Below are positions 29,244 through 60,535 of a DNA stretch of 64,000 nt, piece after piece. The translations under genes and the position numbers were made by a program. The DNA is from Marsupella aquatica (Eukaryota; Plantae; Marchantiophyta): positions 19,890,754-19,954,753 of the forward strand of contig OZ316896.1 of the NCBI GenBank assembly GCA_973895155.1, read 5' to 3'. The notes beneath the pieces are model-generated. The model was not told where the DNA came from. It worked only from the letters and a program-made list of their open reading frames with translations, and did no database searches. The number at the start of each line of letters is the position of its first letter. Position 1 is the first letter of the stretch.

Positions 29244-30312
29244 AGCCAATTTGACCCAAAAACCTGGCAAACCTAGAATATGTTAGCGAAAAGTGAATAC
29301 GCTAGCGGAAAGTGAGTTGACTGTAGTGACACAAGGAACCAATCAGTCCTTGGAAACACATATTAGTGAAAGTGTAATTTCGTTCAGCTTTGTGACCGAC
29401 CCCCCTTAGTTGGTGACTTGACTGTAGTGACACAAGGAACCAATCAGTCCTTGGTACACATATTAGTGAAAGTGTAATTTAGTTCAGCTTTGTGACCGAC
29501 CCCCCTTGGTGACTTAACTGTAGTGACACAAGGAACCAATCTCCTTGGAAACACATATTAGTGAAAGTGTAATTTAGTTCAGCTTTGTGACCGACCCCCC
29601 TTGGTGACTTGACTGTACTGACACAAGGAACCAATCAGTCCTTGGAAACACATATTAATGAAAGCGTAATTTAGTTCAGCTTTGTGACCGACCCCCCTTG
29701 GTGACTTGACTGTACTGACACAAGGAACCAATCAGTCCTTGGAAACACATATTAGTGAAAGCGTAATTTAGTTCAGCTTTGTGACCGACCCCCCTTGGTC
29801 AGCTTTGTGACCGCCCCCCTTGGTGACTTGACTGTACTGACACAAGGAACCAATCAATCCTTGGAAATACATATTAGTGGCCGTGTAATTTAGTTCAGCT
29901 TTGTGACCGACCCCCCTCCCACAGTAGCCAATTTGATCCAAAAACCTGGCAAACCATGAATATGTTAGCCGAAAGTGACTTCACAACTGTAGTGATGCAA
30001 GGAACAAATCAGCCCTTGGAAACACATATTAGTGGCCGTAGTGATGCAAGGAACAAGTCAGCCCTAGGAAACACAAATTAGTGGCCGTGAAATTTCATGG
30101 AAACACAAATTAGTGGCCGTGAAATTTCATGGAAACACAAATTAGTGGCCGTGTAATTTCATTCAGTGATCGACGCCCCCCGCTCACCTTTGTGACCAAC
30201 CCCCTCGACGGTGTAATTTCATTCAGCTTTGTGACTGAGCCCCTCGGTCAGCTTTCATTGAGCTTTGTGACTCACGCCCCTCGGTCAGCTTTGTGACCGA
30301 CCCCCCTTGGTC
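29244..30312. repeat. ~97-bp minisatellite (6 copies) with flanking direct repeat and decaying sub-repeats
   Basis: Unit TTGACTGTAGTGACACAAGGAACCAATCAGTCCTTGGAAACACATATTAGTGAAAGTGTAATTTAGTTCAGCTTTGTGACCGACCCCCCTTGGTGAC starts near 29317, 29418, 29514, 29609, 29706 and 29828. AGCCAATTTGA.CCAAAAACCTGGCAAACC occurs at 29244 and 29926. Confidence 0.92.
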
Positions 30313-31202
30313 ACAATCCTGGTGTATAAATTCATATGCACAAGTGTTTGCGGATTGTTTATTTAATGCAATATTCACCTGGGTACAATTTATCACATTT
30401 CATAAGTGAATACGAGTTTTACTGGTATTGGTAACGTTGTTTTGAGTATCATTTGTACGCCTTTTACTGATTACACCATCAACGCCAGATTCTCCTAAAG
30501 GTTTACCGTTCCTACTTACTATGACTAACATAATGTGCATTCTTCCAGTCTCATCTGCAACTTTCAGCAGCCTGCAAGCCGCCTACACGACAATTGCGTA
30601 GCTTTTAAAACGCTAGCAAAGTGGACCAGAAAACATGCGGCGTGCGGCTGGCAAATTGTAGCAAAATGAGCGTGTTTTAAGAGCGCAAGCAGCTGGCTTC
30701 ATGACCTGACTTGAACCCACCATTATTAGAATCAGCAGGACCTGACGTAAAGCAAAAGATCGGCAAAGTTATTCCCAGAATTGCAGTCAATGCATTGGCC
30801 GTCATTGGAGTAGCTACTTCTGATCAACCCTCGAAGGATTGCGAACAAGACAGATAAAAAGCCCACGCGTCTCAGCAAGTGGAGTAAGAACACCATTGTA
30901 GATATCTTCACCCGAGCTAGATTGCGATAACCATTACCAGTACAAGTGAAACAGAGAGAAGGCCGTCAAAGCTTTGCTCAGTAGCATGCGATCGAACTCA
31001 AACTTCGAAGCACAAAAAAATTCAAGTCAGCCAGGTAGATTTTGGGTCTACAATAGATAAACCCTTACAGGACTTTCGCATCCAAAATCTAGCTACATAC
31101 GGTAATCGACATTCCCTACAAAGCCTAAACTAAGGATGTATGGAGCAGATTGATGCAAAGATATATAGCTATCTAGTTGAGCTTCCATTCCTCGCTTAGC
31201 TT

Positions 31203-36263: not shown

Positions 36264-37779
36264 GAATATAAGGGAATATTGGATAAATAGGCTGTTTTTG
36301 GATGGACAAGTTGTCATTTGTAGTGTCTTTAAAAAATTTGTAACTTTTCATATTTAGTTAGATATTTGGCTGGGCTTACCAAGGTTAATTTTGGAGTGTC
36401 TGACACTTGTTTACATCCAGTAGTATTTGGCTAACATTACTAGTCCACCAGGAGGTATGCAAGCAACATGAGTAATTCACTATTGTATTTGTGGTGGCTT
36501 GTTAAAATTCCAGGGTTGATGGCCTATGAATCACCATATTTAAAACTGAAATGAAAGTAGAATGACCATATATCTTTACCAGATATCCAAGACTAACATT
36601 GTAAGGACTGACCAAGTCAGTTTGGGAAACCAAAATTTTACTAATTCTTAGGCAAATGGGTGGCCAGGGCCACTCCTGCATGGGACCCTTTTGTAGCTGA
36701 GTGTCATGAAACTGAGAATAAACGATATAGTCAGTACACCTTATCCACAAATACAATTTTTTTTACAATAGGCTTGGTCACCCAAATTAGCTGGACTAAC
36801 TAATTCTAATTCTGTGCAACTCTAAATGGGATATACTATTAACCAATAGCGACGATTAGAAGTAATAAGATTGATAGCAATGTTGGGAGTCAACTCAATC
36901 CTAAACTATCCTAAACTATAATACAAGCTTGCGCCTTTTTATGAAGTGGTCGTCATTCAAATTTGGAGTGTCCAAGAAATATTAATCATGTAGAAGAGAA
37001 AGAATAAAGATTATATTAAATTTAGTGTGCACCCAAAAAATAATGAATGCATTCCAAACAAGAAGGGAATCAAATGGGAGAGACAAAAGGAGGGAGCCAA
37101 TGCTCGAGCCAATGGGGCACACAAAACAAGAGAGGGAATGTACATACATGAGTATCAAGGAGGTTCCTAACCCATACACATGAAATATAAAAATACATAA
37201 TATATATGATATTATATATTATTGTAAGTATCACAATATTACAAAATATAATAATGATAGTAATTCAACTAAAATAGGTTAATTAAACACAATAAATTAG
37301 ATGACAAGGACAATGTCAAAAACTATAATAAAATTTTACTTTTTTTTATAATAGTCATTCAAATTTGCAATATCCTAAAAATGAAAAACATGAAAGAATG
37401 ATTTCCTTTATGAATGAAATGGAGAGCAATGTTTCCCAAAAAATGAATTGAATAGTACAAAGAAAATAAGGAGGGTCTCTAGCAATGCAAGAGTATCAAG
37501 GAGACCTCCCTTTACCCGTATAATCTTGATCCGGTCCCTTTACAAACTAAAAAAAGTGACACTCAATCTTGAATGTTCATCAAAACATAATTTTCTCCAC
37601 ACTGTAACATCTATCCTTACACCCCTTCTAAAAATAAGTTCCTGCCCAAGTTACCCTTTAACTTTCCCATACCTGCCACAATGAAAAATTTAATCAAAAT
37701 TTAATTAAATTTATTTATATATAAATAATTCTAATTTTTTTGAAATAATTTCAAATATAAATAAAATAGAGATAAAATA

Positions 37780-38340
37780 TTTTCTCATCTTGACATCTTT
37801 TCTTCATATTAAGATCTTCTCACCTCAAGATCTTTGCTCACCTTGACATATTTTCCTCACCTTGAGATCTTTTCTCACCTCGACATATATATTAGATTTG
37901 TCTCATTTTGCCATATTTTTCTCACCTGGCCATCTTTCTTCACCCTCAACATTTCTTTTCATCCTGTCATCTTTTTCTCATCTCGCCATCTTTTCTCTCC
38001 TTGACATATTTTCTCACCTCAGAATGTTCTTCTCTAACTAGCTCAATACTCGTGCGTTGCACAAAAGATGTCATGTCGGCCAAGATGTCCTTAAGACAAA
38101 AGATGTCGTGTCCGGAGTCATGTCGGCCCAAGATATCGTTAAGAAAATAGAGGTCGTGTCCAGGGTCGTGTTGCCAATGATGTTGTTATGTAAAAGATGT
38201 CATTAAAAAAAAAAGTTGTGTCGCCAAAGAGGTCTTTATGCAAACGATGTCATCAAGTAAGAAGATGTCATTAAAACAAAGAAGTTGTTATGTGACAGAT
38301 ATCGTTAAGAAGATGTCAAGTAAAAATATGTCATTAAAAA
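37780..38340. repeat. Left-end repeat complex of the 38-51 kb unit
   Basis: CATCTTTTCTCACCTT-type ~20-bp repeats (37780-38035, direct counterpart at 50136-50250), followed by AAGATGTCGTGTCGGCCAAGA-type repeats (38036-38340) that are the reverse complement of the repeats at 50300-51091. Confidence 0.8.
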
Positions 38341-39424
38341 GAGTCGGGCAGGGAAGAAGGGAAGAGGGGGAGAGTGGGGCGAGGCAGGGCTGCCCCGGGT
38401 AATTGGGTTGGGGAAGGAGGGTGGTGGGAGGTTGACCGCAAGAATGCGGCAGTCTACGGTTGGCGTGCGGAGCAAGGCGGTAGGGTGGTCGCCCCACTCG
38501 TAGTAGAGGCTGGCCGCACAACATTTTACTTGCCTCTGCTCGGTGCTTTTGCCGCAATCAGATGGAAGTTGACCTCAGGAGCTGGTGTGAGGGCCATTTT
38601 TGGTCTCTATTGCTTTGGTTTTTTTCCATACTGAATTTCTTACACCCAAATTGGCCCTGTAAATTCAAATGACGACCATGGCAAAAAAAGGCACAACACC
38701 TTATTATAGTTTTTGATGTTGTCAAATGTGGTTGTCCCTTTATATATGTGTCCCAAAACCCTGTCACCCCAGCCAAGAGTGGTTTGGCCCCCAACACCTT
38801 GTTATCTCATCCAAATGTATATATTGAATTTGGCAAGTAATCACTATATTCATTAAAAGTGGAATTATAAAGAAGATTTGGAAATTTGGGCATTTAAAAA
38901 CACACTTTTAGGCATAAGAATTGTAAATTTGAAGGATGAAAAATGAAAATTTAAGCATCATGAATTATAAATTTGGGGCAAAAAAATAGACATTTGGGCA
39001 AAGAAAATATTAATTTGGATAATATTAAAAAACATTTGGGTGATAAAAAGTGTTCATTTGGTTGAAAATAGATAGAACATGTGTAATAACACATAAGCTT
39101 GGATAGCATCTATACTCAAAACATCTAGCTTGGATAGGATCATTATCTAAGCAACAATGAAATGCTAGACAAGTTAAATATCTTATATTCAAACTAGGAT
39201 GACATCCAAGTAACTTAGAACTGCCATCATTTTCTAGAAATATATGTACTAAGACAAAAATAACAATTTTTATCAAAAAGTCCATTCAATAACTAAGAAA
39301 GATCATAGAGTATTTGATTGCAAGCCTTGTTCTCTCACTTACTTTAGACAAATGCATGGAAATTAACTTGACCCTCCTACCTACAAGTCATTACATAGTG
39401 GACACTTGTGACCACTCTATCACT

Positions 39425-42400
39425 CTACTCATCAATACCTTCCATGTAAGTTTTGAGAGTTTTCAAAACATTCTTGGGAATTGTCAAACCTCTATCCATA
39501 ATATTTTGTTCTTTGGCACCTGACTTAAACCCATACATTGCAGAATTTGCAAATTGCCAACTTTGAGTGATAGTGTTAAACCCAGGATCTAGCTCCCAAG
39601 TCTTAGTGGTCTGAAAGCAACGTTTGTATCGAACATCATCCTTTGCATCATGCTCACCATGTTTAGGCCTCCACCATTGCACTTGGAACATAGGAGCATA
39701 CCGCTTAGGAATGCTACTTAGGTGAATGCTCTTAGAAAACCTTGAAGAAGACCCTTCACTAAATTGCAAATCTAGTGAAGAAACCTCATGGTTTGGATCC
39801 ACACCACCCAAAGCTCGAACTAACCAGAAACGCCCTTTGCCATTTTTTTGCTCCCATTCATCCTCTGGACGTAAAAACACAAAGTGACCCTCTTGAATAT
39901 CTTGTAGGGGAATCCAACGTGCAAGTTCTCGCTCTTCTCGTGCACCAACGAAGGGTGCAGCTTGACCTTCCATCTCTTCCATGTACTCATTTTGAAGGTC
40001 CATCATCTCTGAATTTTGAGTAGGTTCACTTGAAGGTTGAGAGGTCCCCAAAATCACCTTGTAACCTGTGCCATGGTTAGTCTTTGGCCAGAAATCAGTT
40101 GTCAATGACAATTGTCTTTCTCCCTCCCCTTCTATTGTAAGTGCCTCAGAGAGTGCCATAACAAGCCTCTCCCAATATTTCACCAAAGGAAATCTCTCGC
40201 GGTATGCTGCAGAGGTCTCATCCTTGCAACTTTTCCTCAAGAAATCAATGTAACGATTAAGGAATGGGATGATTTCCTCGACTTTCTTTTGTACCTCCCC
40301 CGATATAGGTTTTGCAAATGGTTGACCCTCCGGTAAAATGAGCGTGTTTGTGATGAGATCAGTTCTCCAAATTGACCTCCCTGTTGCTGGAAGCCAAGGT
40401 TGTTTGACATGTGCTTTATATTGATACACTGGCACATTATCCCTCATGGAGAATAGAAATGCCACTGGTTTTGAGTGACCTTCAATCTCTTTCACTTGGA
40501 AAGCCTTCAAATAGTGCTTGTAAGATGCAACCTCCTGAATCAATCGTGGTACGGGATGGATGCTTTCACACTCCCAAACCTCAGCCATCAACGCAAGGAG
40601 GGTAGCAACCTCTTTGTACCTGACCTGTTTGGATACTTGAGAAAATAGTGCATCCACATCCTCATGGGTGTGGCCAACCATGAGGAATGACATTTGCACA
40701 GTTTCAAACACCCCCTGCTAACAAGCTCGCTGCAAAATGCCATCACATATTGATTTTTATTATCTTTTCCTGAATTGTCCATCTGCAGTGTTAGGTGCCT
40801 TGGTAAGGGCTTGAAAGAGCTCGTAGTCTCAGGATCAACTCTAGAACCAGCATCTGTTGTGCTGGTTTTTTGGCTCTCCTGACCGTCATCAAGGCCTTGA
40901 AACTTGAGAATTGAAACATTTTTGGGTTCCAAGTAACCCGCTTGAAATGCTTCAAAGTCCAAAAGAGACTGAAATATTGGCCTAGTTGCGTTCCAATTGA
41001 AAGCTTCAAGCATGTCTCCCGTTTTGTCTCCAGTGTAATCCTCCAAATCTCGAAGGCATTTGGCCAAAGATGTCACAGTGAAGTCTGCATCTCCAGGCCA
41101 AAGGCCAGTCAAACTAAAGTGTGCATACACTCCTGGATCCCTTCCATGGGTTAACATCCCAGTAAGGGCAATGGGTAGAGGTTGACCACTACCAGAGAGA
41201 GATTTTGGAGTGGGGACCAATCTGGGGATCCAAGTCTTGGCTTGGTCCATCTTATCATGAATAATGCAAAGATAGTTTTGAGGATCCTTCTTTGCAAGAA
41301 CCCTATGAGCATAGTAAACATATCTCCTTGTCATTTGTTCACGAAGATGTCGTGCTCTTTTCTCTTCAATCTCTGCACGCTCTTTTTTTCTCTTCTCCCG
41401 CATCAATTGATCTTTGAACTCAGTGCAAAATGTGCACTTGGCAAATGCACTGCCCTTGTGAAAGTCAAAATTATCAAAAGAATTTTTCCAGATGTTGTAC
41501 ATGGTAACTTCAGTAACCTTAGCATAGCCGTCCAATTCCATCTTTGCAAATACCTCTTGAAAAATCTCCTTCTTAGTGAAACATGATGGGAGTCGATATT
41601 CGACAGTATCGGTGCCGTTGGACCCACCATAGGGAAGATGTGGCATTGGTTCTCCATTTTGGATTAAAATGGACTCCAACAATGCACGAGCATGCAAGGT
41701 GCTTGATCGTGTCTTATGTTGCCCTTGATTTCCATGGAAACCAATTGTGCACCCAGCTTCGTACTGATTTTTGTAATCATAATACTTTGCCGTACTAAAC
41801 CCATGCATTTTTATGAACGCATCCTTACAAACCACACGTCCCTTTAGAACAAAATATCCTTTTCTCTTGACTTGGTCTTCTCTACACCCAAAAAGATTGA
41901 AGATATGACTTGTTTTGTTGTCACTTGACATTCCATGAAATTCCCTCCTCATTGCCTCCAAGTCCTCTCTTGGCATGTTCAAGCAACACTTTAACCTGCA
42001 ACAACCTTCTCTTTGGATGGAATCAATGGACTCCTCGGTGATTTTCAAAAGCGCCCTTGATTGCAAATGTTTTTTTTTTCTCCTCCAGATCCACTTTGGT
42101 CCTTCTAATGAAATTATAAGGTCTTTTTGGAGGTTTCCCATCACCATCCAAATCCGGGTCGCTCTCATTTCGACCCGATTCTATCCACACATGTGAACCT
42201 TTCTCAAGGATATCCCCGAGAAACATTTGAGATGAAATCAACAACAAAGATTTGATTTCCCACCTCACCAAACCTGGAGTACCAGCACGGATATTTGGAA
42301 ATAATGCGGGATCGTTGATATTCACAACAGCTACACCCACATGCTCTGGACCAAGAAGTTCATCATCAACAACACCTGCTTCAAAAGGAACTATGATAAC

Positions 42401-42982
42401 CCCTGTCGCAACCTTACGACAACGAGAAACATCATACAAGTCAACTTCCTCTGCCATCCAGTTGGAACGCATTGTAAAATCTTTCAATGGAAGATCCTTA
42501 AACAGGTTTGCACCCGGGTTTGCACCAACAAACATGCCAGAACCTCGAATAGAGCCTTTTCTTGAAACATCAGCAACATCCCACATTACCCAAGTCTGCA
42601 TTGCCTCTTGCACTGTGTCAGCTCCAGGATGCGGATACGGTAGTTTTCTATTTCCCTGAACAACCTTTGATATTTGTATACTGACACGGCCAACACCGAG
42701 TCGTTCACTATGACAAGTGTCCATTGGATTGGTATTGAAGACAACTCCTTTTGATACAAGTTCATCTAAAATGAACATCTCAACCTCCTCTCCTTCAGCA
42801 AGGTTGCCTCCTTTACCACCAACATCCATTTCGGAACATCCTTCATCCCCATCCACTGGAGTAGGAACACCATCATAGTAGATTTTTTTCCTTGCTCTGT
42901 AGCCTCGCTCCGTGGTGTGGTCTAGCTATAGGCGTTCTTGTATACTAGGCTGCCATGTGTCATCTAAACGTTTGTGAGGCAT
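39425..42982 (-). CDS. DUF7869-type / Sola-like DDE/D transposase (~1,130-1,190 aa reconstructed) split by two homopolymer frameshifts
   Basis: ORFs 42023-42856, 40588-42168 and 39425-40711 join at A10 (42070-42079, EKKK|HLQ) and G5 (40711-40715, SRG|VFETVQMSF). Motifs: CCRLKC, KCTFC, IIHDKMDQAK, LQMDNSGKDNKNQY, FLMVGHTHEDVDALFS. The start is either ATG 42982 (with an in-frame TAG at 42926-42928) or ATG 42829. Confidence 0.8.
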
Positions 42983-42988
42983 TTTTCA

Positions 42989-45900
42989 ATGGCTACTTCC
43001 TCTAGTTCTGATGATTCTACTAGCACTTCTAGTTTTGGGCAGTCCCTGAACTTTGATTCTAGTAAAATATTTGAGTATGATTCTCAAGACACTTTACTAA
43101 AGATGTCGGTGGAATCCGCTTTGGCCGCCTCAAGGGGATTTCATATCACAGTTCCACGTAAGTATGATTCAACAATTGATGCAAGTTAGTCTTTGAAGGG
43201 TCGCTCTTAGAGCGACCCTATCTTGCCTAAGATTTGTCGTTGTTATTGGTTGGATGTTGATTTAAGTTTTCCTAGGAGCGACCCAACTTTGTTGTTGGTT
43301 GGACGTTGATTTAAGTTTTCCTAGGGTCGCTCCAGGAGCGACCCAACTTTTTTGTTGGTTGGACCTTGATTTAAGTTTTCCTAGGGTCGCTCTTGGAGAG
43401 ACCCAACTTATTTGTCGGTTGGACCTTGATTTAAGTTTTCCTAGGGTCGCTCCAGGAGCGACCCAACCCACATGTTTGTTGATGCAGACCTTGTCTCCAG
43501 CTCGCTCTAGGGGCGAGGCAACACAGAAGATCTCTTGCTTTAATGTTTGTCGTTTCAATTTGTTTTTCCAGGAGAACAACTTGGATCCCCAGAGTTAAAT
43601 ATTATGGCCGAGGATGTCAAGGACTTTATTTTCCCTGGACAAGATAAGGCAGGATTTTCGTGGGCACTTGAAGTAGGGATCATGGAGAATGACTTGTCGA
43701 TGATTTGTATCAAGGCAATCACTGCTGAGACAATGAACGACAAGAAGATAGTTGCGTTGGGCCCTGTGGTCCTTGTAAATTGCAGTGATAACCGCAATGT
43801 TACAATCATTATTGAATCCAGAGAAAGATCTCAGTGGATGAGACTTTACTTGCCAATCAAGATGTACTCGTCAATTATCAACGTGGAGTGGATAGCACGC
43901 TCGGAGGCTAGTATTTGTTCAATGGGATTTCTTCCAGATGGGTTCACTGCAGAGGATGTTCTTGAGAGGCATGGAAGATTCAAATTGAGTGGGGTTGATG
44001 TTGTCTTTGGATTCCTCTTTGTGAAGCGGTACATGCATGATCATCCGGACCTTATAGATCTTCCTAACACATGGGTTGTCCAGAGGATGATTGAAACAAC
44101 ACGCTTTTCATATGAGCAAGCAATTGATAAGAGTTTTATTTTCTCTGATGAGTTTGACGAAGATGCTTGCATGAAGTGGATTTCAACTCAAAGGAAGAAG
44201 GAAGAAAAGCATCGAGGTAAGGGGAAGATGAAGATGAAGGCCAAAGAAATGACGTCGGCTGAAACACAAAAGAAGAGAAAACAAAGAGAGCCAAGGAGTG
44301 AAGGAAGTACTAGAGGAAAAAAGGCGGCGTTGAAGAAGAAAGATAAGGACTCCGACAAGAAGCCCAAGAAGAAGGCCAAGATTGGAAAATCAAAGCCCGT
44401 GTCAGCGTCAAAAGCAAGGTTGGTCTTGGATCCGGAGGATGATACATGCCCAACAGATGCACCAGAGGAACGAGATGTATTGGAGGGGCAGAAAGCTTTG
44501 CGGAACATCGAGCAATACTACACTTTTGGAATCAGGGAGGTTTTTGAAATCCCGGTTAAAAGTATTCTTCCGCCTACTGCAGTTTTTGTGTATCGGATGT
44601 TCAACCAGGCTCATGCCTTAGAGATAGCAAAATCAATGATGAAAAACCCTGGCCAGGAACCACATGTTGCAGATTTGATTCCATTTCTAGAGCGCACTAA
44701 GCAGTTGTTACATTTTGACAATACCGCACGCGATCGGAAGCAATTTTTGTTTGGTGTTAAGAAGCAAGAGATACAATTTCTTGCAATCAGTGGGCAACAT
44801 TCCACAAAGGCTCCACAATGGATTCAAGGGTGGGCAGAGAAGGATGCCAAGCTAACTGATCTTGCTAGCAAACTCCAATATCGGAAAGCGAGGATCTTAT
44901 CAAACCTCACTCCAAGGGCAATTTTGGTCGAGCACTCGAGCCTTTCAAATGCAGTAAATCAGACCATGCAGTTTAAGTCTTGTTTTCTAGAGACAGTTGT
45001 TCATGCGAGAAGGCAATTTGATGAATGTGGGAAACCACCGCGTCCAGGAATTGGAACAAACCAAAGTACAGACAACCAGAAATACCAGGTAAACATTTTC
45101 ATTAGTTGGAACTGTAGTTTAATTTTGCCTCACTCTTAGAGCGACCCAAATGAAATTGAATGATGAATACAATGATTGCCCCAACCATTTTCATATGGCT
45201 TTGTCATTTTCTTCGCCTCGCTCTAGGGGCGAGGCAAAGAAGTTGAAGTTTCTAAGTTTAAACATCTAACATGTTTTTTGGTGGATGAATGTAAATGCAG
45301 GATTGGTTTGCCCTCGCAAAGATAACAATGGGAAAGTCGAGCTTGAAAGCCATTTTTTGGTTGCTCTTTGCTGAGGATAAGCTTTTCCATTTATGGCAAA
45401 CTGTTTGTTGGGATTGGTTGGCAGGGAAGCTCCCTGGCGGGGCAGGAGAGTATGGTGGGCCGCGGCCACTAAAGCTGGTCACGCCAACTCTTTTTAGATG
45501 TTTTGAAGGGGAGATCAATTCTAAGGATATCATTGATATATTGACCGCGGTTTATGAGAAGAAAGCACTTCTCAAGAAAGATGCCTCCAACAAGATGGAT
45601 CTGGTGTCAATCCCATATATGGCTCATACCATCAAGGTAATGACTAAATTGAAGCAAGTCATTGTTGAGTACTTTGTTGAGAAGCACAAGGAGAAGTTTC
45701 CCGGGGGGACATCGTGGGCTTCGGTGGTCAACATCATGCCGGCCTTGGGATCTCAACTTGAGCTGACAAAATTGCGAAGAGCAGCTGGGGAGGTCTACCT
45801 TAGCAGTTTATTAAGGAAGAACATTGTGAAAGAGGCTTTCCCTCAAAGTCTAATGGTGAGATTAGACGGGTTGTACTGCAAACAATTTGGTGGAGTTGGG

Positions 45901-48900
45901 CGCACACGAACAGAGCCTTTCTTGACGTTCTTTAGTGAGAATCTAATGAAGACAACCACGCCAGAGTTATTGGAAGAGGCGACGCCAATGTGTCCACTTG
46001 CAATTGTTGATTTTAGTAGGGCACGACAACATGAATGGACAGATTCGGAAATTTTTGTATTGCTCCAATATATTGTGGAGTTGCCAAGGAATACAACCAT
46101 TGTAGTTGTCATGACTACTCATCCAGGGCCACTTCCAGCCAACATCTTAAGTGCCCTAAGGAAATTAGGACATGAAAAGCATTTAGCCATCCATGTTGAA
46201 TACGGGAGTTATGATCGGGAAGATCGCCCAAATCCGCAGGGCTTAATTTTTACAGGAGCGATTGAGCAGGTCATTTTTGCTGGAATTACAGGTGAAGACA
46301 ATTTTGATTGGAATCAATTGTTTAAGCCAGAGTTCAATTCAAAATTTAGTTTTCACCCCGATGTTGACTGTGATTTCAATATTGAAGTGAAGGCTGACAA
46401 GCAAGAGAAAAGCAAGGGAAAAGAGAATGAGACAGAGGAGCAGTCTCCCGCATTTGATATGGCAGATTTATTGCGGCAAGCTCCAATGTTTGAGATGGTC
46501 AGAAGTCGAGGAGGATTTGTCAATCCGCATGCCAAGCCCCGACACATGCTCAAAAATATTATTGAATGTTTTTCCTGTGAGGGGGAGATTGTCCTCGATT
46601 TTTTTCAGGAGGGCAGGTTTTGAAGGTGGCCTTGTTGGCATACCGAGATTGTTTTGTCTATTCAGACACTTTGCAAGAACACCATTTCACCCAAGCATAT
46701 GCAAGGGTTTTGTGCAACAGGATTCCCTCCCTTATGAAAGAGCGGATGGGAGTACATGGTCCTAGGAGAGCTCATCTAAGTGTTCTTTGCGGGCCTATGG
46801 ACAACCCCCAACCGGGCCCTCAGCGAGTTGACCTTGAGGATGGTGAGTTGCAGCATGATGCTGGAGGTTCAAGTCCTATGGTAGAGGAGGATTTTGGCGG
46901 AAATTGGGATGCTCGAGCAACAGAAATGGTTGGCATTACTACCTACGGTGTTGAAGGGCTACCTCAACTCGACATAGTGATGTCGGGTCGCCCTGAGAGC
47001 GACCCTCCATCAAATCCTCTCAACCCTGAAGTATCAAAATTGCATCCCGAGAGACCGCAGGTATCGTGCACATTGGATGCAGGTTGGCAGAATATTGGGG
47101 CCACTACACCCACCACGGACCTACAAGTTGGTATTGCAGAAGCGATTGAAGACAACCTTCCACTTGGAGAGACAACAAATGTTGAAGCTGAAGAGGCAGG
47201 TGCTTCAACTTGTTCCGAGTCTCCTCAATTTTGTTCGTCAGGGAATAAATTGGTCTTCACAAGGATGTCAAGCGGAAGCCCCATAATATTACGCTTGTCT
47301 CAAAAGTCTGGATCTGAGATAGGTAGAACAGGATATATGAAGACAGTCCGTCATGCAACTCATTTCATTTGGAGAAATGGACCTAAAGTTGGATTGAAAG
47401 AAACGTTGGAGGATGCGCCGAAGTTAATGGTCAAACCTGATTACATAATAGACAAATTGAGATTGAGTCCAGTGTTTGCACCGCCAACATTGGTGGAGCA
47501 ACTTCCTGTTGGCGTCAATTCTGATATCCAAAGTGATCTAGGTGATAAAATGATAGATGAATATGGGTCATTTAGTAGTGGAGGTTAATATTATGGTTTC
47601 GTTCTTCTATTTTTCACAATAATCTAAAATATTATGTTTGGAAATCATATATGGACAGACCAAAGTTTTGTCATAGCATCTCTTCCATCGAAGGATATTA
47701 TTGGTCTACCTTCAGCAAGCGGTACCCTGGTCCAAGACAAAGCATTTGAGCAAGGTACTTCTACATTGATATATCAAAATGCTTTGACATTCAAAAATGA
47801 TATGTTTGTTTTCCCCATTAGGTCGGGTCGATCCAGGTTCGACCCTAAGTTCTTCTTTTATATCTTTTAGATATAATTTTGATTCATTTGGATCTTTGCA
47901 GATTTCACTCCTAAATTGCACTCTGATATAAGAAGAAAACTCTTGATTTTGGACCTGAACAAAATTTGTTGGGATTGCGTCAAAACAAAAATCTTGGGAC
48001 CGTTAAGATCTACAACAACTGTGCGGGGTGTGCATTGGGGGAGACGGGGTGGATTCAATTTCATGTACGTGGAAAGGCCAGGGTTGCACCAATTTTTGGA
48101 GGTGGCTTTCAAAGGTTTTGATGTCGCATTGTGGACTTGTGCGGGGAGGCCAAGAACTAATGAAATGATGAATTTGATTTTCAAAGAAGAGGAGCGGAGG
48201 CAATTTAAATTTGTTTTCACACAAGAAGATGCTTTTGATACTGGCATAAAAAGACCGGATGTAGCAGATGGGAAAACAAATATTATGTTGAAGGATTTGC
48301 GTGTGGTGTGGAGTCGTTTTGGAGACAAGTATGATGATACAAACACTCTACTTATTGATGACTCTCCAGTGAAGGCTTTTGCAAATCCACAGTATAGTGG
48401 TTTGTTCCCAACTCCCTTCTCACACATTGCCGAGAGTGACACTTTTCTACCAGAGATACTTTGGCCATTCCTTAGAAAATTGTGGAAGGCTTATGACATC
48501 CGACAATATATATATCTGTCAACAATCCACTTTGGTCATTTGTTAATATAAATGATGACCGTGAAAGTAATGCTGCAATCTATGATTTACTTTCCCATAA
48601 GTGGGGAAGTAAGATTTGGCGTTCCAAGATTGAGTATACCATCTTGGATGTCACTGGAGATGAGATATGTTGGGAAGTGAGGGATATGGTACAATCCTAC
48701 CCTACATTTGAGAACCTGACCAAAGATGATATGAAAGATGTGGTCAACAACTGTTTGGGCGAGTCTTATGCAGGTCCCTTCAGAGAAAATCCTCGCCGAT
48801 TTGTCTGGGAAGTTCTAAAGACTAGGGATCTCACCTCTAAGTTTAAAAACCGTTATCCCAAAGACACTTGCACTCGTGACAGACTATATGACCCAAATGG

Positions 48901-48976
48901 AGAGCGACTCACTTGTTCAAATCAGTCATGTAGACATATTCATGGAGGCATAGAATTTGAAATTTTAGATGATTAA
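42989..48976 (+). CDS. Multidomain cargo protein (~1,712 aa reconstructed): Lys-rich region, ParB/Srx-like domain, N6_N4 (beta-class) DNA methyltransferase-like fold, FCP1/NIF-like HAD domain, CCCH zinc finger
   Basis: Proposed exons 42989-43157, 43572-45088, 45301-47583, 47659-47754 and 47902-48976, all GT-AG and phase-compatible. After +1 T at 46599-46605 and -2 nt at 48506-48515 the total is 5,139 nt (1,713 codons). Motifs: EIPVKSILP/YRMFNQAHALEIAKSM/FLAISGQHS; HAKPRHMLKNIIECFSCEGEIVLDFFSGG; LLILDLN/ERPGLHQFL/KDL/NTLLIDDSPVKA; C-x14-C-x4-C-x3-H. Confidence 0.65.
43197..43519. repeat. 60-bp tandem array built around the palindrome GGGTCGCTC-N3-GAGCGACCC (intron 1 of the cargo gene)
   Basis: Palindromes at 43198-43218, 43324-43344, 43384-43404 (1 mismatch) and 43444-43464, a half site at 43276-43284 and a variant at 43499-43519. 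The period is exactly 60 bp for three copies. Confidence 0.92.
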
Positions 48977-50076
48977 TCATTATGTTTCTGTACATTGTAG
49001 GACACAAGATTGGAGTCATGCAATCATTTTTCTATTTCACAGGTCATAGAACTACTTTGGACTTTACACTAGCTTGACCATTGGAGTAGGATCGACATTA
49101 TGGCTAGCCAACCTTGAATATATGTTATGATAATTGAGATGATTAATCTCACTTTGAATTTAATCATGAGTTTTTGACCAAATGATACATGTTTGTCACT
49201 TATCTATTTAATTTCAAATACAATTAATATTAATAATTTCTGTATTATGATTAATTGATTAAAATCAAATTTGGAGTGCAAAAGTGTAATTTTAAACCAA
49301 AAAGAGTGTATATTTAGTCTTGAAAAATTGTTTATTTGGAGCAAAATTAATGGACTTTTTAGAGACAAGAATGTAAATTTGAGGATCACAATCTGGACTT
49401 TTAAATTTCCAGTTTTAATGAATACTGTGATAGTATATTTTTTCTTATAAAATGATTTCATTCATATGAGTACCACGGTGAATGAGTGTATACACTTTCC
49501 TTGCATTGCATGCACATCAGGTGTACATTGAGGCAGGGTCAATACAAATAACACAATGGCCTGGGAGGGATTAGATAAAAGAGTGTATTTTTGAATACTA
49601 TGATGGCATCAAAAGGAAGTACTTTACCTGCTAAAGTGATGAGGAATATCAAGAAGTATTCTGTTCCCTTCATATTTTGCTGTGGGTTTATTTTTATTTG
49701 TTCTCTTAGCTTTGCTTTGCATATTTGATTTCTTTCACTTGGCTTGGAAATGTAAATTTTGAATGACCGAAACACTTCAAAAAGTGGCGCAAGTGTGTAT
49801 TATAGGAGTTAATTTGTAATTGACATAGATTATCATGGGGGTACTTGATATGAATGTCTAGGTATAGAAAGTACTATGTCTATGCATGGATGGTTTCCTA
49901 TGCATTGATAGTACTATACTTATATGTCCAGAAAGTACTTGATTATTGTGCATTGGTATTCCTGGCATTCCCTTTATTTCTTGATTGGAAAACGTGCACG
50001 CTTTACTTCACACTAAACATTATTCAATTTTGGTTTATTCCTTCTGTTTGTGAGATTCTTTGATTTTTGTGCCCTT

Positions 50077-51091
50077 CAAATTCAAATGACGACCACTGCA
50101 TAAAAAGGCGCAACCTTGTATTATAGTTCTTGATGTGACATCTTTTTCTCACCTTACCATCTTTTCTCTCTTTGACATATTTTTCTCAGCTCGAAATGTT
50201 TTTCTCTTATGGACATCTTTTCTCACCTTGATATATTTTGTCACCTTAACATGCATCATTTGTGCAATGCACAGGTATGAGGCCCAAGATGTACTTAACA
50301 ACATCTTTTACTTCACAACATTTTTGAGTAATGACATACTCTATCTATTGACCATTTTGTACTTAACAACATCTTAATACTTAACAACATTTTTGGCATA
50401 ACGACATCATTGCCGGCATGACATCTACTTACTTGACACAATTTTTTACTTGATGACCTTTCGGGCAACATGCCATCTTTCGCAAAATGACTTCTTTTTC
50501 TTAACAACATATTTTTATTTCATGACATCTTTCACATAAGAACATCATTCTTGGGAAACACAACATATAGTTCTCTTAAGAGCATTTTGGGCGCCACAAC
50601 ACTTTCCTCTTAGCAACATCTTGGGGGACACTACATCTTGGACGCACAACATTTGTTTTCTTAACAATATCTTGGGCGCCATGATATCTTTATTTTAATG
50701 ACATTTTGGGCGACACAACATCTTTTTTCTTAACGACATTTTTTGTGCAATGCACGGGTATTTTCCCTCAACAATGTCTTGGCCGACACGACATCTTTTC
50801 CCTCAATGATGTCTTTGCCGAGACAATATCTTTTTTTCAACGACATCTTGGCCGACATGACAACTTTTTTTTCAACGACCTCTTGGCCAACACGACATCT
50901 TTTTTCTCAACGATTTCTTTTCTCTCAACGACCTCTTGGCCGACATGACATCTTTTCTCTCCACAACCTCTTGGCCGACAAGACATCTTTTCTCTCAACG
51001 ACCTCTTGGCCGACACGACATCTTTTTTTTCTCAACAACATCTTAAGCCGACACGACTTCTTTTGTGCAACGCACAAGTATTGAGCCAGTT
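50077..51091. repeat. Right-end repeat complex with Helitron-like 3' terminal hairpin
   Basis: ~35-bp units TCTTGGCCGACACGACATCTTTT..CAACGAC; TGTGCAA(C/T)GCAC motifs near 50261, 50744 and 51064; the last is TTGTGC-AAC-GCACAA followed by GTATTGAGCCAG|T. 50077-50136 also repeats 38660-38720 in direct orientation. Confidence 0.8.
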
Positions 51092-52170
51092 CCATATAAT
51101 TGAAGAGTTGGGTCCAAGCTTCAGGTAAATACTTGACTGGCCCCTCTAATGAAAGATATTCCTAACAAGCCCCTTTTCAAATATACTTAATGGGCCCCTT
51201 GTCCCCGTAACCCTTTCTCACCACCTGTCATATTTAATTTTTCCATTTTTTAATTATAATGTACTACAAACTTTATACGAGTCAGTCCACAAGATGTACT
51301 ATCTTTAGGAAGGTGAACCAATGGGATTAAACCCTAAAATCTACAGTACCACATTTCGTTTTATCGGAGATTTTCTAAACTCTAAACCTTTGCAAAGGTG
51401 CAAACATTCTTATAACTGCCCATTACAAAAGGGGAAATATTCTCTTCCACTAACCTTATACATACAACAATCATACTGAAAGAGTTTGGATAAAACATAG
51501 TAACATGGAAATGCAAATGCAAATTCCAACAATACATATGATATTACGCAAATATGGCCAATAACGTGATTGTTGTACCCTTTATATGCTTTGTGACACT
51601 TGCAAATTCTGTAGTGGAAGGTCTTGTCATGTGAAAATACTCGATAACGCTCGTTAGAAACAACGATGAGCAAGTACACCACATCCGCACCTATATTTGC
51701 AGCTTAGAGACGACCATTACTCGAGAGGCACTTTCTTAGATTACTAGATTAGACATGCTAACAGACGAGAGAAGCCAAGACCGAAACCCGAGATGAAAAC
51801 TTATTAACCGTCCACTAGAGCAACATTACAGCACCCACTCGCAGCATTTCGTGATGGAACGAGAATAGTCCACAATCATGTCGCGAACGCCCGCACAGTC
51901 AGTCAGTCCCGTGTAACGGGCACACAAATCAACAATGGAGCTCTCACCCCTTCTCTCAGTATTGGCTCGAGACACATAACTCACAACTACTCCAGCCTGC
52001 AATTCGCACTTGGACTGGGCCTCCATAATGGGTTTGCCGGACACCTTCATTCAATATCGTTCAATTCCTCCACACCTGGAGCTTCGTACGTGGCTCGAAG
52101 GAGCACGGGAAAGTACTGAGAGCCGTAGACTTTCCGCCATGAGTGGTTTTAATCTAGACAACTGACTCAA

Positions 52171-59629: not shown

Positions 59630-59840
59630 TGTTGAAAACGTGAACATACCATAATATGAACTAAAGGTGCAGAGACGATGAACCAATAAGTAGCGGCAGC
59701 TGCAGCCGGGAAGGAAGGGAATCAACGTCCAGGAGAGAGACCCTAAATCCGACAGCAGAGAGAGAGCCCGATAAATACGCGCTACACGACAAGATCAGAT
59801 CTTCCTCGTAACGGCAGGAACTTTCTACAAAGTTCCAACA
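59630..59840 (-). repeat. 3' LTR (211 bp) of the copia element
   Basis: Bounded by TGTTG ... CAACA. On the minus strand it is preceded by the polypurine tract CGAGAGGGGG (59841-59850). The adjacent 5 bp TGTAG (59625-59629) is the predicted TSD. Confidence 0.85.
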
Positions 59841-59872
59841 CCCCCTCTCGAGGAAGATTTAGTCTGAGAGGG

Positions 59873-60535
59873 ATGTCGATCCAAACAGGAGAAATGAAGA
59901 CCGAGACAGGACGGGCAATGTGTCGTGCAGTGTTAAGAACGTTATGGACAGTGTTAGAGGCAGTGGGGTTGCTGCTCCAAATTGCCCACAAGACAGTGAA
60001 GCTGTTGGCGCGCTTGGTGAGAGAACTGGAGCCGAAAGATGATTGTGGTCATGAAGAGATCAAAAAAGTGGCAGGTGGCAAGAGCGAAGCAGGAGATGAA
60101 GCCCCCTCTGATGCATGGATTTCTCCACCGAAAGTGCCGAAGAGTGTGCTGGTAGCCCCCTCTGAGTCCGAGCAGACTCCAAGGAAGAAGCACACACAGG
60201 AGGAGATGGAAGTCGACCAGCAATGGAAACCATGTAGTAAGGAGCAACAGTATGCGGCAGCGTCGATTCTGAGGAGATGGCCAAGTAAGATGAGGGTTCA
60301 GCAGAGGGCGGAGGAGCGAGAGGGGAGCCGGATTGCTGGAGGAGTAGCGCCGAAGAAGTACTATGCAGTAGCAGTGGGTCGAGTACCTGGAATATATGGA
60401 TCGTGGGCAGATGCAAGCATGCAGGTGACGGGTTATTCAGGGAATTGTCACGAGGCATTTAGAACATTGGTAGAGGCGGAGCAGTTTATGAGGTATCATC
60501 GTAGAGCAGTAGAGTATGAGATAGATGAGCATTAG
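59873..60535 (+). CDS. Antisense extra ORF of the copia element, 220 aa, with C-terminal RNase H1 N-terminal / caulimovirus viroplasmin (hybrid-binding) domain
   Basis: ATG-initiated open frame between PPT and pol stop; KKYYAVAVGRVPGIYGSWADASMQVTGYSGNCHEAFRTLVEAEQFM fits the YAV..GR..GIY..W......V.GY.......F....EA..F pattern. Confidence 0.85.
   Translation: MSIQTGEMKTETGRAMCRAVLRTLWTVLEAVGLLLQIAHKTVKLLARLVRELEPKDDCGHEEIKKVAGGKSEAGDEAPSDAWISPPKVPKSVLVAPSESEQTPRKKHTQEEMEVDQQWKPCSKEQQYAAASILRRWPSKMRVQQRAEEREGSRIAGGVAPKKYYAVAVGRVPGIYGSWADASMQVTGYSGNCHEAFRTLVEAEQFMRYHRRAVEYEIDEH

Follow-up and report, generated by a model that had tools for sequence, protein, structure and literature searches.

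A gene in a liverwort genome resembles bacterial DNA methyltransferases but carries an altered catalytic motif, which raises the question of whether it still encodes an enzyme. The gene lies in a stretch of 64,000 nucleotides from Marsupella aquatica (assembly GCA_973895155.1, contig OZ316896.1, positions 19,890,754 to 19,954,753 of the forward strand), hereafter the window. This is plant DNA, with Dus, P450, and SURNod19 genes among the host genes. The gene is cargo of a DNA transposon with terminal inverted repeats (TIRs), and part of its product has the predicted fold of beta-class amino-methyltransferases. We favour the explanation that the protein is a pseudo-methyltransferase, kept by selection and used by the transposon as a DNA-binding accessory protein.

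The methyltransferase-like fold and its active site

The predicted gene comprises two exons (43604-45088 and 45301-47588), separated by a GT-AG intron, and would have about 1,257 codons when intact. Its parts are listed below, where identifiers beginning with P denote homologous proteins.

43604..45088, plus strand: exon 1, 495 codons, encoding an N-terminal domain without assignment, then a linker rich in lysine and a conserved domain that contains the motif SGQHS
45089..45300, plus strand: predicted phase-0 GT-AG intron; P0017 (Calypogeia fissa), P0085, and P0088 cross the same junction
45301..45906, plus strand: conserved all-helical domain before the methyltransferase fold (helices 9-190 of P0003, and part of the P0003 model)
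45907..46745, plus strand: domain with predicted beta-class amino-methyltransferase fold, read across a frameshift and placed by mapping a homolog model onto the window
46746..47588, plus strand: low-complexity linker and conserved C-terminal tail ending DEYGSF

The window protein is broken, and the protein modelled was P0003 (residues 1-485, AlphaFold, 62-row alignment), which is 49% identical to it. The model reached a predicted local distance difference test score (pLDDT) of 90 and a predicted template modelling score of 0.71. With Foldseek and two VIA-align runs, the top structural match was CcrM (Z 18.3, root-mean-square deviation 3.8, 219 positions aligned). Further matches were M.BceJIV (16.3), M1.HpyAVI and M1.MboII (both 16.0), M.RsrI (15.8), M.PvuII (15.4), and N4CMT (15.1). 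On the MT-A70 side, METTL3 and MTA1 gave a Z of about 12 and METTL14-type chains about 10. All 20 rows with a Z of at least 8 are beta-class or MT-A70 proteins; the next row, an unrelated fold, has a Z of 5.4. The modelled domain is a circularly permuted seven-stranded methyltransferase fold. Hence, the model upholds the beta-class fold claimed in the original prediction, and the enzymes it named for comparison, M.PvuII, M.RsrI, and M.MboII, are among the matches.

Other searches gave related results. In a viral structure library, the named top matches were N4/N6 methylases of phages and giant viruses, together with one phage protein named ParB. The expected match to PF01555 was seen for the motif X-I part (E=1.7e-4), which makes a chance resemblance unlikely but, at 22.1 bits, stayed below the cut-off of 26.7. 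Among ten scanned proteins one passes, P0014, with 29.2 bits. The family profile matches M.RsrI at E=8.4e-8 and a 10-row prokaryotic profile at a probability of 97%. With E values up to 10 admitted, a PDB search with this profile brought up M.RsrI and M.MboII but neither N4CMT nor METTL3. A predicted homodimer with S-adenosylmethionine (SAM) scored 0.29 against a mark of 0.32, in a run that left the alignment unused, and we count it neither for nor against a dimer.

The key motifs map to the window as follows.

45940..45942, plus strand: motif III Asn, with N or D in 29/33; predicted contact to the SAM adenine, equivalence taken from position (PMC10406627)
46009..46020, plus strand: site of motif IV, where D-F-S-R stands instead of DPPY/SPPY; the profile alignment pairs LAILDFSR with MVLVDPPY
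46264..46284, plus strand: motif VIII strand EQVIFAG, with E or D in 24/25
46522..46539, plus strand: motif X, NPHAKP; His is changed to Asn in 18/20 and Lys is present in 18/20
46597..46622, plus strand: motif I, DFFSGGQVL, one residue shorter than DxFxGSGT; it contains a T run that is short of one base in this copy
46644..46667, plus strand: motif II strand RDCFVYSD, with the ribose-binding acid replaced by Ser, Ala, or Val in 11/11

The order of motif IV, recognition region, X, and I is that of the beta class, with IV ahead of X-I as the original prediction had it. The sequences it named are also in place. Thus, NPHAKPRHMLKNIIECFSCEGEIVLDFF is at 46522-46605, and SGGQVLKVALLAYRDCFVY is its continuation in the next frame, across a run of seven T at 46599-46605. 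PLAIVDFSR, proposed for the motif IV position, is at 45994-46020; here, the global profile alignment and the end of the model strand LAILD (residues 227-231), at Asp231, both sustain the placement. EQVIFAG, tentatively called motif VIII, is that strand.

At the motif IV position, counted over covered rows, D occurs in 30/32 (the other two have E), F in 29/32, and R in 25/33, with K in four more. The consensus of this motif is (D/N/S)PP(Y/F/W), and the eroded forms EPPL (METTL14) and NALW (MTA9) mark a non-catalytic partner (PMC7544214). The original prediction had asked if homologs retain DPPY or SPPY. They do not: [DNS]PP[YFW] occurs in none of 90 proteins, many of them fragments.

We mapped the SAM contacts of N4CMT (PMC10406627) by sequence position, using profile alignments and predicted secondary structure. 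The position of D301 (N4CMT numbering) has Ser, Ala, or Val in 11/11, versus an acid in 10/10 prokaryotic rows. That of S283 is deleted, that of T285 is never Thr (0/15), and that of R313 is Tyr or Phe in 11/11. Motif I retains its Phe (17/17) and Gly (15/15), in a sequence that does not fit FxGxG(S/T). Glu460 is invariant (11/11) and close to the lost motif II acid. By these equivalences, the SAM pocket is kept at its adenine end and lost at its ribose/carboxylate end. Note that the alignment with prokaryotic enzymes is reliable over about 50 columns only. Since both motif IV and the SAM motif depart from the consensus, we do not file the protein as an active beta-class member. We also considered a 2'-O-methyltransferase, for which K-D-K-E is the motif, and dropped this reading because the motif VI strand has no Lys.

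These changes are properties of a family. After removal of two near-duplicates from 62 rows, 60 remain, with a median pairwise identity of 31%. Among 250 columns, 23 are at least 90% conserved, versus a median of 41%, and these include motif residues. Conservation at such low overall identity argues that the altered site is under selection. Long open frames occur in P0003 (901 amino acids), P0085 (1009), and P0088 (1219). Name look-up took in 30 of the 93 proteins; the named homologs are from the liverworts Calypogeia fissa (three proteins, on three contigs) and Riccia sorocarpa (one protein), and the other 26 are from metagenomes or sequencing runs. A search spanning 1578-4505 amino acids found no longer homologs, which is weak evidence. 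Atlas matches for the methyltransferase domain (0.95, 0.94, and 0.93, with PF01555 clusters at 0.90 and 0.88) serve as a lead only.

Of 11 metagenome loci, one (L001, 1.8 kb) holds a true homolog and is too short to show neighbours. The other ten, along with ten viral and four genome loci, hold ordinary prokaryotic enzymes that were matched via motifs X-I, and these have DPPY, DPPF, or DLPY where motif IV fell in the read frame. Separately, bacterial beta-class methyltransferases with the variant motifs HDLPY and DFFSHSG were seen in L004 (1434-2369), L005, L011, and L025.

The frameshift belongs to this copy of the gene. An extra T behind 46598 is present in contigs of four sequencing runs (X1, 309/309; X2, 542/542; X3, 2881/4963; X5, 7.7/7.7 depth), which come from three studies; X1 is possibly the window's own source. 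It is also present in X6 (31/31), making five runs in all, while X4 and X7 have zero depth at the T run. Since the T is present in sister contigs, the frameshift is a mutation or assembly error of one copy. Intact homologs P0002 and P0003 read DFFSGGQVLK unbroken. Homolog P0048 loses frame at the same place as the window copy, so the T run seems to slip easily. The X1 contig matching 45351-47404 has 12 differences from the window and none within 45997-46020. Hence, intact copies also read LAIVDFSR.

The transposon, its copies, and its other genes

The gene and its surroundings form an element of the following layout.

38037..51090: whole DNA transposon with TIRs, about 13.05 kb, bounded by the TIR pair and by contig ends and depth in run X1
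38037..38080, plus strand: left TIR (ACTAGCTCAATACT...), followed by subterminal repeats to about 38340
50292..51090, minus strand: right subterminal array of about 35-bp repeats and right TIR (51047-51090)
38033..38036: candidate target site duplication, TCTA on the left and TCCA at 51091-51094 on the right; three of four bases match, weak alone
43240..43481: 60-bp repeats in tandem, in the region that separates the two divergent genes
39425..42925, minus strand: DUF7869 putative DDE transposase (PF25273, E=1.9e-15 and 1.9e-22), broken near 42070 and 40710
47883..48976, plus strand: NIF/FCP1-like phosphatase gene of the haloacid dehalogenase (HAD) type (PF03031, E=2.4e-16; UBLCP1, E=1.8e-7), broken at 48506

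The TIRs are 45 nt long and 91% complementary. Before 38037, the loose ends of 42 contigs in X1 differ from one another (agreement 0.41). Depth in the same run is 286-349 for five interior contigs, versus 10-21 for three unique flank contigs. This suggests roughly 15-20 copies of the element (range 12-30), less than 1% different from the window copy; coming from contig depth, the number is a rough guide. None of the contigs listed spans the whole element. With TIRs and many insertion sites, the element is a TIR (cut-and-paste) DNA transposon. Its genes are depleted of CpG (observed/expected 0.41-0.60, versus 0.75-0.97 in three host gene regions), which fits methylation pressure from the host.

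The window copy and the X1 contigs differ at 21 listed coding positions, and 14 of the differences are non-synonymous. The other breaks are likewise absent from sister contigs: that at 40710 in X6 only, that at 42070 in X1 and X4, and that at 48506, where the window has two extra bases, in five runs (X1, X2, X3, X5, and X6). We conclude that the copy in the window has decayed slightly and stems from an element family that was active recently.

We take the DUF7869 gene to encode the putative transposase, from its motifs (HDKMD, QMDNSGKDNKN, and VGHTHEDVD). There were no transposases among the PDB sequence matches to its product, and DUF7869 was not found by name in the full-text literature searched. 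The N-terminal part of this gene (42071-42925, minus strand) encodes a pair of small modules, alike in sequence (V(S/A)xGVxxx...LGxxxVxxxVxxV) and reminiscent of Tnp1-associated domains of En/Spm elements; the Pfam scan gave no match for them. Depth over 39700-42100, in X7 and other runs, is far above depth over the cargo genes. This suggests that many related DUF7869 families carry other cargo or none.

The first motif of HAD phosphatases is canonically DxD, and here it is DLN. The phosphatase is possibly a second altered enzyme, and its target is perhaps RNA polymerase II carboxy-terminal domain phosphorylation.

Two other regions of the methyltransferase-like protein are conserved. The first (44507-45016, plus strand) is kept in P0017, P0085, P0088, and P0090, with its SGQHS motif (44789-44803) invariant. 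By eye, it looks ParB/DndB-like (GxHR/DGQHR), with Ser replacing Arg, a likeness that no tool supported. There was no relevant match in Pfam, NCBIfam, PHROGs, PADLOC, or PDB sequences, and no relevant match to the domain in phages, plasmids, or four bacterial genomes; the best Atlas match scored 0.78. The model of this domain had a pLDDT of 43 and a best Z of 3.2. Its profile, an alignment of five rows only, matched 75 phage ParB rows at a probability of 0.65, where the maximum of 40 shuffles was 0.83. With the score at shuffle level, the ParB label finds no support, although so shallow an alignment does not speak against it either. The second region is a C-terminal module (47169-47588, plus strand; HY.W..GP.KG ... 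DEYGSF), common to many homologs behind a long variable linker and without a Pfam match.

Repeats also mark the surroundings. The flanks (36908-38036 and 51091-51300) are themselves repetitive and have subterminal motifs in common with the element, which seems to have inserted into a related repeat. Further away is a tandem array of roughly 97-bp repeats (29303-30331) with cores GTGACCGACCCCC. An open frame at 59747-60535 (plus strand) ends with a match to Cauli_VI, the N-terminal domain of RNase H1 (E=9.8e-17), and is probably from another mobile element.

What the altered protein might do

The original prediction allowed for either an inactive binder or an enzyme with altered chemistry, and the residue evidence leans towards the former. 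Beyond that prediction, we find that the motif IV Asp is kept, that the SAM pocket is half remodelled, and that a TIR element with multiple copies carries the gene as cargo. We put the probability that the protein is a selected pseudo-methyltransferase, serving the transposon as a DNA-binding accessory protein, at about 0.5. In this case, a plant DNA transposon that was amplified recently would carry an accessory gene, whose product has the predicted beta-class fold and likely lacks methyl transfer. Catalysis was probably lost because the Pro-Pro-aromatic portion of motif IV, which holds the flipped base, is gone, together with three of six polar contacts to SAM, while a fourth (His) has become Asn. 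By analogy with CcrM, METTL14, and MTA9, the protein may grip DNA, or open it, as a dimer. It would most plausibly do so at repeats of the element itself, subterminal or internal, and would thereby aid transposition or resist host silencing by 5-methylcytosine (5mC). The retained pocket of Asp and Arg would then serve to recognise a base or nucleotide rather than to modify it. As for precedent, the beta class has twice given rise to non-catalytic subunits with an eroded motif IV, and CcrM opens a DNA bubble as a dimer (PMC7544214).

Several points weigh against this explanation. Conservation of the motif IV Asp, of N/D in motif III, Lys in motif X, Phe and Gly in motif I, and Glu/Asp in motif VIII, as aligned, goes beyond what a dead scaffold clearly needs. 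The fold evidence is carried by the P0003 model, not by the window protein, and residues were equated through profile alignments and predicted secondary structure. DNA binding, expression, and a target site of the protein are assumed in this reading. Finally, the link to a transposase is established in this element family only.

The kept residues of motifs I, III, IV, and X, together with invariant Glu460 near the lost acid, speak for an enzyme that is still active as a DNA amino-methyltransferase, with a new form of motif IV, and that would mark the element's own DNA with N6-methyladenine (6mA) or N4-methylcytosine (4mC). Here, Asp would hold the target amino group, Phe would stand in for Pro through its main-chain carbonyl, and Arg would take over from Tyr in stacking on the base. 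Such a substitution gains from the fact that one contact of the first motif IV Pro in beta-class enzymes is via the main chain (PMC10406627). Moreover, retrotransposon-borne DNA methyltransferases (DNMTs) can be active (PMC5890265), and a liverwort uses a bacterial-type 4mC enzyme (10.1101/2021.02.12.428880). The reviewed consensus, however, requires Pro-Pro-aromatic (PMC7544214), and the ribose-binding acid has been lost along with the Ser/Thr pair and the Arg; we consider activity possible but unlikely. Only tentatively do we entertain the bolder idea that the transposon brings along a bacterial-type DNA-modifying enzyme with a new D-F-x-R site and a reshaped cofactor pocket. Such an enzyme would mark the transposon's copies with a modification other than 5mC (6mA, 4mC, or some larger adduct) or else enlist a beta-class writer of the host, so that the element escapes 5mC silencing. 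A pocket lost at the ribose/carboxylate end and kept at the adenine end might also suit an adenosyl cofactor used for other chemistry or a non-DNA substrate, as in a protein or small-molecule methyltransferase, a sink for SAM or S-adenosylhomocysteine, or a user of decarboxylated SAM. Enzymes of the NPPY type have shifted to protein substrates before, as in HemK (PMC7544214), and the element also has a protein-phosphatase-like gene. Yet all strong structural matches act on nucleic acids and the results point to no particular substrate, making this quite improbable.

A further rival is that the protein acts as a decoy, pairing as a subunit with a beta-class writer of the host (DN4MT1-like for 4mC or METTL3-like for N6-methyladenosine) and poisoning or redirecting it, in the way that METTL14 and MTA9 pair with active partners. 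Tested beta-class enzymes act as homodimers or heterodimers with divided labour (PMC7544214), and the named homologs are from liverworts, the lineage where DN4MT1 was found (10.1101/2021.02.12.428880). However, neither N4CMT nor METTL3 was matched in the PDB profile search, so that the interfaces may have drifted far apart, and the presence of DN4MT1 in this host is an assumption; we regard a decoy as a long shot. Note that the Pfam scan of the element's eight long frames found no active beta-class partner. The simplest account, that a captured bacterial methyltransferase gene has rotted as a passenger, would explain the frameshift in the window copy and the share of non-synonymous differences from X1, which looks neutral. 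Against it, decay is limited to the window copy, the replaced motifs recur in the 60 de-duplicated relatives, and long open frames exist. Simple decay is largely refuted by this family-wide conservation, and we give it very little credence.

Relation to known systems and significance

Our preferred reading, a selected pseudo-methyltransferase, can be set beside known proteins. Bacterial beta-class enzymes (CcrM, M.RsrI, M1.MboII, M.PvuII, and M.BceJIV; PF01555) share the fold (Z 15-18), the order IV-VIII-X-I-II, the Lys-Pro of motif X, the DxF..G of motif I, and the first residue of motif IV. Unlike them, the element protein has DFxR, lacks one residue and the Ser/Thr in motif I as well as the acid of motif II, and is only 8-15% identical, and it is part of a spliced eukaryotic gene, of the length given above, in a TIR element. 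METTL14 and ciliate MTA9 also combine the beta-class fold with a motif IV that is eroded yet conserved, as a pseudo-methyltransferase should. In contrast, these two belong to the host, in the MT-A70 clade, and their active partner is known, whereas the element protein is mobile, has no known partner, and is nearer in structure to prokaryotic beta enzymes than to METTL14-type chains. Marchantia DN4MT1a/b and bdelloid N4CMT have a prokaryote-type beta-class fold in a eukaryote, DN4MT1 being in a liverwort. They are active host genes reported to keep SPPY (10.1101/2021.02.12.428880, PMC8885841), and DN4MT1 is reported without extra domains (PMC8885841). Since SPPY is kept in both, the element gene is neither. 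Note that the likeness to N4CMT is by structure only, and that DN4MT1 was compared by description. The portions of PMC12344493 available give Marchantia and Adineta as the only 4mC acquisitions.

Mobile elements with methyltransferase domains are also known. Those of the N6-adenine type in DIRS1, likely inactive there, are described as PCIF1-derived and in retroelements (PMC4738411), unlike the beta-class domain in a TIR DNA element seen here; they serve as a precedent for a pseudo-methyltransferase in a mobile element. Elements of Symbiodinium and charophytes likewise carry methyltransferases, reported as C5-DNMTs in retrotransposons (PMC5890265). Iyer et al. also give two permuted clades with unusual motifs, and the element's methyltransferase family was not found in the parts of that article available (PMC4738411). 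Their supplementary file has no DFFSGG, AIVDF, or SGQHS, although gapped alignment rows could hide them. The anti-silencing protein VANC of Arabidopsis VANDAL elements, described as element-encoded and DNA-binding (PMC10398659), may be similar in role; the likeness is functional only.

For the transposon itself, the DUF7869 motifs presumably resemble those of Sola1 DNA transposons. Common points would be TIRs and, possibly, a 4-bp duplication, and Sola1 is reported in a bryophyte (PMC9033089). We came across no description of such an element with a size of 13 kb and two cargo genes. Full-text literature searches, with Repbase reports and most subscription journals outside their scope, turned up no plant TIR transposon described as carrying a beta-class methyltransferase fold. 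What appears to be new is a beta-class fold with an altered site in a plant TIR element; transposon-borne methyltransferase-fold proteins and beta-class pseudoenzymes are known kinds.

Few prokaryote-type beta-class amino-methyltransferases are known from multicellular eukaryotes, namely N4CMT and DN4MT1, both active host genes. The element family would be a third such family, mobile, whose active site differs from theirs yet is conserved, and it resides in a transposon that amplified recently. If the protein is dead, a pseudoenzyme of the METTL14 kind would have arisen independently here, and it would be a candidate factor for anti-silencing or transposition. If it is active, it would break the (D/N/S)PP(Y/F/W) rule and provide a private epigenetic mark for transposons. 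Such elements may also offer a possible route by which bryophytes gained amino-methyltransferases.

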